A DNA stretch of 37,359 nt. Origin: a virus. Its lineage: Duplodnaviria; Heunggongvirae; Uroviricota; Caudoviricetes. The translations under genes were made by a program, and so were the position numbers. The notes beneath the pieces are model-generated. The model did no database searches, was not told the DNA's origin, and worked only from the letters and a program-made list of their open reading frames with translations. The DNA is taken from IMG/VR virus record IMGVR_UViG_2654587746_000004, positions 1-37,359 of that record; one strand, written 5' to 3'. Within the stretch, counting starts at the first letter, position 1. The number at the start of each line of letters is the position of its first letter. Positions 27,539-31,540 of the stretch are shown here, piece by piece.

Positions 27539-27712
27539 TTATGTCGGTGATACTTCGTCGCTGTCTCGCCACACGTCCTCCTTTTCCTGCGGTAGTGGTA
27601 ACACCCCTGTTGGTGTTCTTTCACACCGGAGACACCATCGATTCCAGTAAGGTTGATTTGGTCGGAAGCGGTTATCTTCTTTGCATTCACCGCACCGATA
27701 ACATCGCATCAT
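27539..27712 (-). CDS. ninD: NinD-like Cys-rich zinc-finger protein
   Basis: 57-aa product [36 protein letters not shown]...; ATG overlaps ninB stop (ATGA); CxxC...CxxC motif. Confidence 0.7.
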
Positions 27713-28149
27713 GCTGCCCGGTCTCCCCATCGCGCTTTCCACTCCAGAGCCAGTCTCGCTTCGTCTGACCACTTAACGCCACGCTCTGTACCGAATGCCT
27801 GTATAAGCTCTAATAGCTCCGCAAATTCGCTTACACGCATCCTGCTGGTTGACTGGCCTATTACCACAAAGCCATTCCCGGCAAGGTTAGGAACAACGTC
27901 CTGCTGCTTTAATGCTGCGGTAAACACACACTTCCAGCTTTCTGCATCCAGCCAGCGACCATGCCATTCAACCTGACGAGAGACGTCACCTAAGCAGGCC
28001 CATAGCTTCCTGTTTTGGTCTAAGCTGCGGTTGCGTTCCTGAATGGTTACTACGATTGGTTTGGTTGGGTCTGGAAGGATTTGCTGTACTGCGTGAATAG
28101 CGTTCTGCTGATGTGCTGGAGATCGAATTTCAAAGGTTAGTTTTTTCAT
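27709..28149 (-). CDS. ninB: NinB (Orf-family recombination mediator)
   Basis: 146-aa product [55 protein letters not shown]... near-identical to remembered lambda NinB; start set at MKKL. Confidence 0.92.
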
Positions 28150-28226
28150 GACTTCCCTCTCCCCCAAATAAAAAGGCCTGCGATTACCAGCAGGCCTGTT
28201 ATTAGCTCAGTGATGTAGATGGTCAT
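28146..28226 (-). CDS. Putative 26-aa hydrophobic peptide, translationally coupled on both sides
   Basis: Hand-translated [26 protein letters not shown]; ATG abuts primase-helicase stop (TAA-ATG) and stop overlaps ninB ATG (ATGA); the tR2-like hairpin lies inside it. Speculative. Confidence 0.3.
   Translation of the reverse strand: MTIYITELITGLLVIAGLFIWGRGKS
28166..28197 (-). terminator. tR2-like rho-independent terminator between replication and nin genes
   Basis: Minus strand AGGCCTGC-TGGTAATC-GCAGGCCT perfect 8-bp stem followed by TTTTTATTT; position equals lambda tR2. Confidence 0.7.
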
Positions 28227-30107
28227 TTAATACTCCGTCACGTTTTCCTGTCGCCACGCCTCGTCATATTCCGATTTCGGCATATTGGCGATGTAGCTAT
28301 ATGGCGATCCTGATTCAAGTTGCAGGAACTGGTGCGATTGCTCGTCAAGGAACAACGGGACACCACCTTCCCAACCTTCGCCGTTACGTTGCTTTTCAAG
28401 CATCAAAACAGATGCCGGAGATGCCAGTAGCTGTTCGTCCTTCTCTGACATCTTTTCACCACTCTGAACTCTCTGTAACGCTCTCTCGCGAGCCTTGTTA
28501 CGCCAGATTATAAAAAGGTTGTCTGTCAGGTCTGTTATCGCTCCAGAGCCTTTTACGTCCATTTTCCCGGTTGGTTTTTCTTCGCTGTCTCCTTTTCTGG
28601 AGTGAGTAACGAGAATGACGTGGGAGTTTGTTTTGTTTTTGAAGTCACAAATCGAGTCAACAAATGCTTTCTGCCCGTTATAATCATCGTCACCTATGCC
28701 GCATTTCATCAGGCTGTCGATGATGAATAACTGGATCCCGTATCGGCGGCGAGCGTAGTCGAATATTTCGATCAGCCTGTCGGCTTTCGCCGTTCCGGTC
28801 AGGCCAAACACCCAAAGTCTTTCGTCATAAAATTTAAATGCAGAGTCAATTTCCAGCACTGGCGGCATCTTGCAGCACGTCGCCTGACGGGTAAGGCGCT
28901 TAAGGAGAATACCAGGCTTCAGCTCAAGTGACGCGATGCATGTCTTCACACCCTGACGCATTGCCTCAAGTGCCATATGCCCGACAACCTCCGTTTTTCC
29001 GTGACCGTTCACACCATTGACCAGCGTCAACTCGGCCTCACGGAACTGGAATTTATCTGCCAGAGATTCCCACGGTGGATTAAACAGATACTGCTGCTTG
29101 CCGTAGAAAGCGTTGATAGTGTCCTGGTAAAACTCTCGCGCGCTGTAGAGTTCTTCAGGATCGAAGTAGGATGCCGTGCCGATGTACTGCCAGATTTCAT
29201 CCTCGGTAACACCGTTCATCAGGCATTCGTTGATGTCTTTGTACGGCAGAGTAACAAGACGGCAACGATGTTCACCGAGTCGGCTTGCGATTTCCCTTGC
29301 GGCTTCACGACCAACATCATCAACGTCCATCGAGATGAATATTTCCTCAAACCTGTCGAGGTTGTGATACTCAAACTCAATCCACTGTTGCTTAGCGCCT
29401 TTCCCGCCACCAAACGGCACGGATAACGCCGAGATGCCGTATTGCGCATAGCTCATACAATCAATTTCGCCTTCGCAAAGTACAACCGCCCTCACGCCAG
29501 CGTCCAGAGCCTGCCATCCGAACAGACAAGGTTCGCAATCACCTTCTGCCATAATGACTTTCTTCCCGTCCGGGCGCTCAGTGCTGATTCGCTTGACCTG
29601 CAACAACTCACCATCGCGTTTGTACGGAATCACCAGAGCATCCAGTTCCCGCTCTCCATTCCACACCTTGCCGCTGACAACCTCGTAGCGCTTTACGATT
29701 TCTGGCGATATGCCACGCGATTGCAGGTACTCAAGATGGGATTCTGTTCTGGTAACGTAGCGGGCGATTTTCTTGCGGTCAGGTCTGGAGAATTTCTTCT
29801 CACGTTTGGCATCGAAATGGTGATCGTCATCCTTGATTCCGAGAAAGGCTTTCGCTTCCTGCATAGCCTGATGCAGGTTAATTCCACGACATGCCATCCA
29901 CAAATCAAGCATGTCACCGCCGTCTCCCTCAGCGAAATCAGCCCATTTTTTCTTGCCGCTAAGGTTGACCTTAAGGCTGTTTCCCTTGTCACCGTTGACG
30001 TTACCGGCAACCCACTCATGCCCCTCTTTCTTGCCGTTTGGCAACAGGTGCGGAGCCACCCTGTCAACCTGCGCCCAAAGCAGGTCGCTAAGTTCACTTG
30101 GCGTCAT
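28227..30107 (-). CDS. Bifunctional replicative primase-helicase (zinc-finger/TOPRIM primase + DnaB-family helicase)
   Basis: 626-aa ORF downstream of the O-like initiator; Walker A GVNGHGKT in C-terminal half; central acidic TOPRIM-like segment (..LCEGEIDCMS.., ..ISMDVDDVG..). Confidence 0.8.
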   Translation of the reverse strand: MTPSELSDLLWAQVDRVAPHLLPNGKKEGHEWVAGNVNGDKGNSLKVNLSGKKKWADFAEGDGGDMLDLWMACRGINLHQAMQEAKAFLGIKDDDHHFDAKREKKFSRPDRKKIARYVTRTESHLEYLQSRGISPEIVKRYEVVSGKVWNGERELDALVIPYKRDGELLQVKRISTERPDGKKVIMAEGDCEPCLFGWQALDAGVRAVVLCEGEIDCMSYAQYGISALSVPFGGGKGAKQQWIEFEYHNLDRFEEIFISMDVDDVGREAAREIASRLGEHRCRLVTLPYKDINECLMNGVTEDEIWQYIGTASYFDPEELYSAREFYQDTINAFYGKQQYLFNPPWESLADKFQFREAELTLVNGVNGHGKTEVVGHMALEAMRQGVKTCIASLELKPGILLKRLTRQATCCKMPPVLEIDSAFKFYDERLWVFGLTGTAKADRLIEIFDYARRRYGIQLFIIDSLMKCGIGDDDYNGQKAFVDSICDFKNKTNSHVILVTHSRKGDSEEKPTGKMDVKGSGAITDLTDNLFIIWRNKARERALQRVQSGEKMSEKDEQLLASPASVLMLEKQRNGEGWEGGVPLFLDEQSHQFLQLESGSPYSYIANMPKSEYDEAWRQENVTEY

Positions 30108-31246: not shown

Positions 31247-31540
31247 TCAGAATTCCATCTGGATTTGTTCAGAACGCTCGGTTGCCGCCGGGCGTTTTTT
31301 ATTGGTGAGAATCGAAGCAACTTGTCGTGCCAATCGAGCCATATCGTCGTCAACGACGCCCCATTCAAGAACAGCAAGCAGCATTGAGAACTTTGGAATC
31401 CAGTCCCTCTTCCACCTGCTGATCTGCGACTTATCAACTCCCACAGCTTCCGCTGTCTTCTCAGTTCCAAGCATTGCGATTTTGTTAAGCAACGCACTCT
31501 CGATTCGTAGAGCCTCGTTGCGTTTGTTTGCACGAACCAT
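31247..31540 (-). CDS. cII: Transcriptional activator CII (lambda-type)
   Basis: 97-aa product [74 protein letters not shown]... near-identical to remembered lambda CII. Confidence 0.95.

Follow-up and report, generated by a model that had tools for sequence, protein, structure and literature searches.

The ninA reading frame and its tR2 terminator as a portable cassette between the replication and nin genes of lambda-like phages

The window analyzed here is the whole 37,359-nt stretch of a Caudoviricetes virus record (IMGVR_UViG_2654587746_000004), and the subject of this report is a 26-codon open reading frame (ORF) at the junction of its replication and nin genes. The ORF lies between a primase-helicase gene, whose counterpart is named “toprim domain-containing protein” in the Sf101 and ES18 records, and ninB (Table 1). 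A first-pass annotation of the same letters had described such an ORF, with an ATG that abuts the upstream stop, a stop that overlaps the ninB ATG, a perfect 8-bp-stem hairpin inside, and coupling to both neighbors. All of this is borne out: abutting or overlapping junctions are present at either end, and the hairpin occupies nucleotides 30–53 of the ORF. The anti-Shine-Dalgarno duplex at the start codon is worth −6.1 kcal/mol. One of the three frames of the stretch is open, and the other two are closed. An open frame of 26 codons is not significant on its own, since the chance of one is about 0.29 per frame; as judged from the comparisons below, what goes beyond chance is the recurrence of the arrangement across many unrelated flanks and not the length of the ORF.

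Table 1. Features at and around ninA in the window.
Feature	Position	Strand	Remarks
ninA ORF	28146..28226	-	26 codons plus stop; corresponds to lambda 40567-40647 and to bsq6 of Sf6
ninA start codon, ATG	28226-28224	-	
ninA stop codon, TGA	28148-28146	-	
Shine-Dalgarno motif GGAG of ninA	28233..28236	-	6 nt 5' of the ATG, within the 3' end of the primase-helicase gene
Primase-helicase (upstream gene)	28227..30107	-	Toprim_2 and DnaB_C; stop TAA 28229-28227 adjoins the ninA ATG
tR2 hairpin, AGGCCTGC-TGGTAATC-GCAGGCCT	28174..28197	-	Perfect 8-bp stem, 6 G-C pairs, 8-nt loop
tR2 U-tract, TTTTATTT	28166..28173	-	Directly 3' of the hairpin; encodes part of Leu-Phe-Ile
GGGGGAGAGGG, Shine-Dalgarno region of ninB or other next gene	28155..28165	-	Inside the 3' end of ninA
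ninB	27709..28149	-	146 aa; PF05772, E=1.1e-54; ATG 28149-28147 overlaps the ninA TGA as ATGA

In phage lambda, ninA, the terminator tR2 within ninA, and the ATGA-linked nin genes are textbook features. When the region was compared by megablast, homology to lambda was found to start exactly at the A of the ninA ATG, and the 81 nt of the ORF match the lambda segment between ren and ninB with one synonymous difference (ATC/ATT). By this match, the ORF of the window is the named ninA of lambda-like phages, which the first-pass annotation had not recognized, and carries tR2. The earlier label “tR2-like” was too cautious, as the hairpin and T-run are identical to those of lambda tR2 itself and ninB lies directly downstream. 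The exact peptide of the window is on record as “NinA protein” in NCBI and UniRef (K7PHM1), P22 NinA is Q38675, and the identity of the window peptide to NinA of P22, Sf6, and mEp234 is 92–100%. NinA falls in PHROG 5907 (function unknown; E=1.6e-19), and no family model for it was matched in Pfam or NCBIfam. The ORF goes by several names in phage records. It is annotated as NinA in Sf101; as gp63, “similar to P22 NinA,” in ES18; and as ninA, containing “terminator L2; similar to phage lambda,” in P22. In Sf6, it is gene 45, and the same 81 nt are also given as “bsq6; boundary sequence” and as “terminator, homology to phage lambda tR2.” The lambda RefSeq record leaves the ORF unannotated. In one paper (PMC8022706), ninA is counted as a nin gene of lambda with reference to Cheng et al. 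1995; Kroger and Hobom 1982 are cited for the ATGA chain of these genes, and ninA also lies within the nin5 deletion (PMC3349717).

The 96-nt stretch at 28140–28235 of the window is present in 2065 of 5426 complete Escherichia coli genomes, and a single genome can carry as many as 8 copies. At these copies, RefSeq/PGAP annotates NinB and the toprim gene on either side but not ninA. This means that ninA is missed by standard annotation pipelines even though over one in three complete E. coli genomes has the stretch.

The tR2 site is built as an intrinsic terminator: on the transcribed strand, a U-tract comes immediately after a G+C-rich hairpin. The folding energy of the hairpin is −15.1 kcal/mol, and the stem pair probabilities predicted for a transcript ending at the U-tract are 0.90–1.00. 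In lambda, the established control of tR2 is antitermination by N, which overrides the terminator. No stable competing antiterminator structure was found in the 90 nt upstream, where the best duplex with either arm reaches only −7 to −10 kcal/mol, and ninA/tR2 is therefore not a classical attenuator. Rfam gave no match at the ninA locus. A long-range helix of AUGAC with GUCAU, in which the ninA start would pair with the ninB start (z = −2.3), was rejected as a conserved feature because a mismatch in P22 is uncompensated and the 3' half is absent in other downstream contexts. Elsewhere in the window, at 31271–31298 on the plus strand, opposite to the strand of the early-right operon, AGAACGCTCGGTTGCCGCCGGGCGTTTTTTATT (12 pairs) looks like a strong intrinsic terminator; it may resemble the terminator of the lambda oop RNA, which is antisense to cII.

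Copies of the region were gathered without selection on the ninA ORF, in four samples. An identical NinB, which over 80 viral contigs share, served as the anchor for 78 loci, and the exact hairpin with its T-run was the anchor for 119 IMG/VR loci; a second hairpin type anchored another 105 loci, and 114 loci came from metagenomes. On the left side, there are seven upstream contexts, namely ren, two DnaB-type helicases, the primase-helicase of the window, and three small gp62-like ORFs, and all of them join exactly at the ninA ATG. The junction is ATGA in five contexts, TGATG in one, and TAAATG in one. A Shine-Dalgarno-like motif is found at −18 to −3 in all seven, with an anti-Shine-Dalgarno duplex of −5.9 kcal/mol or lower, a level reached by 7.7% of background segments inside the same genes. 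On the right side, homology ends in or just after GGGGGAGAGGG, and about 14 different downstream genes follow. With the next start codon picked algorithmically, the distance from the ninA stop to that start is −20 to +9 nt in the approximately 14 contexts, mostly in the form of ATGA, GTGA, or GTGGCTGA, and the C-terminal tails that lead up to it are unrelated (GRGKS, GRGKT, GRVNRG, GRGKCG, GRG, and GRVIGGFKK, with IKNEGDPDGHR in the HK97 type). A stop next to a start is partly a matter of geometry, given a chance of about 40% per context that a stop falls within 11 codons, but the repetition over so many contexts, as read from the junctions, is not explained by geometry. In its junctions, the cassette thus matches the boundary-sequence pattern described for Sf6, a short conserved stretch with non-homologous genes on both sides (7 contexts upstream and about 14 downstream). 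On this comparison of flanks, the 81 nt are lambda tR2 in ninA, one cassette at the boundary of the replication and nin modules of lambdoid phages.

Some phages do without it. Among the 78 viral contigs with a NinB identical to that of the window, 15 are without tR2 and ninA; these have another upstream gene, whose TAA lies 22 nt before the ninB ATG, and the junction falls at the ninB Shine-Dalgarno. The idea that the cassette is a miniature mobile element, with ATGA...ATGA direct repeats and ATGAC/GUCAU ends, was dropped because the repeat is absent from most right-hand junctions.

The second hairpin type is that of HK97 gp56 and HK544 gp48, a NinA of 32 aa that also belongs to PHROG 5907. 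The first 31 nt, the position, and the frame are the same as in the window, and an intrinsic terminator again lies in the ORF, but the hairpin is unrelated (GGGGCTATT / AGTAGCCCC, 9 bp with a 5-nt loop). The total length and frame are unchanged, and the longer tail, IKNEGDPDGHR, overlaps the next gene by 14 nt. In many NCBI records of E. coli, Salmonella, and Shigella, this 32-aa NinA is named “histone H1,” which is a propagated mis-annotation. A third hairpin variant (L214; GGGGCCACT / AGTGGCC) carries a compensatory U-A to C-G change compared with the HK97 type. It is 1 nt shorter, so that beyond the stem the ORF switches frame and continues into the next gene, in frame with it and unbroken by a stop codon.

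Among the lambda-type copies, the most frequent stem change, GGC to GGT, is synonymous and keeps the pairing, and the most frequent loop change leads to L13Q, in the hydrophobic core, in about 10 loci. Conservation of the reading frame had been put forward in the first-pass annotation as a check on the ORF. Of 222 distinct contexts anchored on the terminator, 215 keep the frame open through the T-run, although with copies that diverge by just 1–2% this count has limited power. Frameshift, nonsense, and insertion lineages exist as well. A 1-nt deletion lineage of 5 loci has the ORF cut to 7 codons (MTSTSLR, then a stop), ending before the hairpin, and one nonsense codon was seen at E7. In 12 of 233 lambda-type terminator copies, a homing-endonuclease gene (HNH_3 and AP2, 203 aa) lies inside ninA. 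The insertion point is between codon 10/11 and the tR2 hairpin, with the TAA stop of the HNH gene directly abutting the hairpin. This insertion was seen at L023 (1759-2452), L096, L191, and L349, with the phage match H95 (Stx2a_WGPS6), and it leaves a chimeric 34-aa ORF, MTIYITELIAGLSLLMVLTVYIIKYILYANKKTN.

A scan of species-representative genomes for extra diversity returned mostly lambda contamination. In these assemblies (loci L340, L343, L345-L348, L350-L352, L355, L356, and L358-L360), lambda DNA with ren-ninA-ninB and the lambda-specific ATT codon is present as low-coverage contigs, one of them 48442 bp long. The bacteria concerned are unrelated and include Pseudomonas, Oceanobacillus, Bradyrhizobium, Psychrobacter, Nocardioides, and Veillonella, and the finding looks like contamination with laboratory lambda.

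The effect of NinA translation on tR2 can be gauged from a published study. In reporters with the identical lambda sequence, the termination efficiency of tR2 is about 0.9 in vivo (PMC4824070). Li et al. (NAR 2016, PMC4824070) built a reporter in which lambda tR2, preceded by the sequence that natively lies upstream of it, separates RFP from GFP. In their construct W48, which has the NinA ribosome-binding site (GGAG) and AUG, but is without the native overlapping stop/start, the natural 3' tail, and N antitermination, the termination efficiency was 0.721, compared to 0.862 when the ribosome-binding site was mutated (W48-up1) and 0.870 when the AUG was mutated (W48-up2). In other words, silencing the NinA start reduced read-through from about 28% to about 13%. 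Upstream RFP was 4.8e4 in W48 and 1.0–1.2e5 once GGAG or AUG was mutated, a halving that the authors read as non-stop mRNA decay because ribosomes from the NinA start find no stop on terminated transcripts. The lambda NinA start site is active in this reporter, and together with the Shine-Dalgarno motif in 7/7 upstream contexts, this indicates that the ninA ORF is very probably translated. The authors also concluded that a ribosome is unable to catch up with RNA polymerase over the first 30 nt from its start, and they found that efficiency depends on the distance from stop codon to hairpin (0.25 at 8 nt, 0.53 at 13, 0.73 at 18, 0.83 at 23, and 0.92 at 28). In the native arrangement, stop codon and hairpin are 26 nt apart where the junction is ATGA and 30 nt apart in the window, just where the efficiency saturates. 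The suggestion in the first-pass annotation that the ORF is a device by which translation modulates termination stands only in part: NinA translation does lower tR2 efficiency in the lambda reporter, but the effect is modest, does not amount to a switch, and has no alternative antiterminator to work through.

The explanation we favor, with a probability of roughly 0.55, is that of a portable cassette made up of a terminator and a translated ORF, the ORF serving to bridge translation from one neighboring gene to the other. Without N antitermination, RNA polymerase would halt at the U-tract. The stop-to-hairpin gap of 26–30 nt, provided by the 5' 29 nt of the cassette, would hold the ribosome of the upstream gene clear of the hairpin, leaving tR2 functional for any polymerase that N has not modified. 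Once antitermination lets transcripts read through, ribosomes that have finished the upstream gene would re-initiate at the overlapping or abutting ATG, pass through and melt the hairpin, and then stop on the start codon of the next gene. The ORF would in this way carry translation across a terminator as a bridge, leaving no gap in the “chain of interlinked genes.” On this reading, the hydrophobic peptide would most likely arise as a mere by-product when the G+C stem and the T-run are translated. The lambda-type and HK97 gp56-type hairpins, although unrelated, occupy the same in-frame position, which speaks for such a bridge. Downstream genes may not need the coupling because they have their own strong Shine-Dalgarno, GGGGGAGAGGG, and the bridge would be dispensable because the 1-nt deletion, E7 nonsense, and HNH-insertion lineages exist. 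A further step, which we regard as quite unlikely, would be for ninA translation to act as a sensor of antitermination status. Transcripts ended at tR2 would lead to ribosome run-off, tmRNA rescue, message decay, and less expression of the replication genes, and N-modified read-through would lead over the bridge into ninB. The halved upstream RFP of Li et al. fits the tmRNA and decay part of this idea and hints at it.

The small membrane peptide suggested in the first-pass annotation would make NinA a functional protein with a single transmembrane helix and its own role in the infected cell, the terminator being merely encoded within; we think this unlikely. NinA does have a hydrophobic core (best 19-residue Kyte-Doolittle value 2.04, with 1.52 in the HK97 type and 2.19 in the HNH-chimeric form), and both hairpin types are grouped in PHROG 5907. 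However, hydrophobicity is expected in any frame, as the T-run codons give Leu, Phe, and Ile. Constraint on the amino acids was measured on codons 2–10, a stretch without a known terminator role. In the lambda-type, hairpin-anchored sample, there are 7 synonymous and 5 non-synonymous changes (P about 0.01–0.02), the latter conservative, and the common replacements are all I/V/L/M or T/A swaps. Among pooled variants seen at least 2 times, the ratio is 7:6 (P=0.024), and the pooled variants are distributed over the codon positions as 10 / 3 / 8, with a depletion at second positions. Against this, the full pool of 321 terminator-anchored copies gives 8:13 (P about 0.1) and the HK97 type alone has no synonymous excess (2:6 plus one nonsense); the significance of the lambda-type sample is lost once the HK97-type and metagenome samples are pooled with it. 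Taken together, the variants suggest that the constraint on NinA is weak, the codon-position and ratio data not being decisive. Also counting against a membrane protein are L13Q in its hydrophobic core, C-terminal tails that are freely replaced, and the persistence of the frameshift, nonsense, and HNH-insertion lineages. The family does not extend beyond a single DNA module of nearly uniform sequence, neither Pfam nor NCBIfam gave a match for it, and the nin5 deletion, which removes ninA, is viable (PMC3349717).

One could also consider the ORF incidental, in which case the 81 nt would be a terminator and a recombination linker that aids module exchange, and translation would be a side effect of the Shine-Dalgarno and ATGA junction upstream. 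Hundreds of copies are almost the same at the DNA level, even at most synonymous sites; the left junction never moves from one nucleotide, Sf6 carries the bsq6 annotation, nonsense changes are not detectably depleted among distinct variants (1/21 compared to about 4% expected), and silencing NinA translation barely alters tR2 termination. All of these agree with an incidental ORF, but we find that account doubtful in light of the Shine-Dalgarno at the right spacing in every upstream context, the stop that overlaps or adjoins the next start codon in about 14 contexts despite non-homologous tails, the unrelated replacement hairpin that preserves both frame and length, and the fact that only one of the three frames is open. 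An attenuator in the style of a leader peptide, in which the position of the ribosome on ninA would set the formation of tR2 and nin expression would follow the state of translation, is very improbable for a terminator whose established control in the phage is N antitermination. It has in its favor the location of a terminator inside a short ORF, like that of the pyrBI leader (discussed in PMC4824070), and the rough doubling of reporter read-through by NinA translation, but there is no alternative antiterminator pairing to go with a stem probability of 0.90–1.00 and no run of regulatory codons, and the published effect is small (0.72 versus 0.86–0.87), with a ribosome unable to catch the polymerase within 30 nt (PMC4824070).

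The name of the ORF, the internal terminator, the ATGA chain, and the test of translation against termination were all on record before, and the locus carries little weight as a discovery. It neatly illustrates how a terminator can travel among unrelated genes as a cassette that stays in frame and is coupled to them by translation. The comparative picture is that of a single left junction at the ATG, a Shine-Dalgarno in each upstream context, a stop placed at the starts of the next genes, and two interchangeable hairpins.

Among known systems, the pyrBI type of leader shares with ninA an intrinsic terminator in a short translated ORF, which can be suppressed by a ribosome close behind RNA polymerase. 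In contrast to that type, ninA has no pause-site-enforced coupling, metabolite sensing, or alternative structure, and translating it changes tR2 termination little. Lambda tR2/ninA has the hairpin, the U-tract, the ninB Shine-Dalgarno, and the ATGA overlap with ninB in common with the window. The difference lies upstream, where ren overlaps ninA as ATGA in lambda and the primase-helicase gene meets it as TAA-ATG in the window, and for this reason the spacer from stop to hairpin is 30 nt in the window compared to 26 nt in lambda. P22, ES18, Sf101, and Sf6 have the same cassette in the same place after the replication genes, with the terminator inside the ORF and few substitutions relative to the window (I9V, as well as S26T in P22). 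In Sf6, the cassette leads into another downstream gene than in the window, and its tail ends in GRGKCG.
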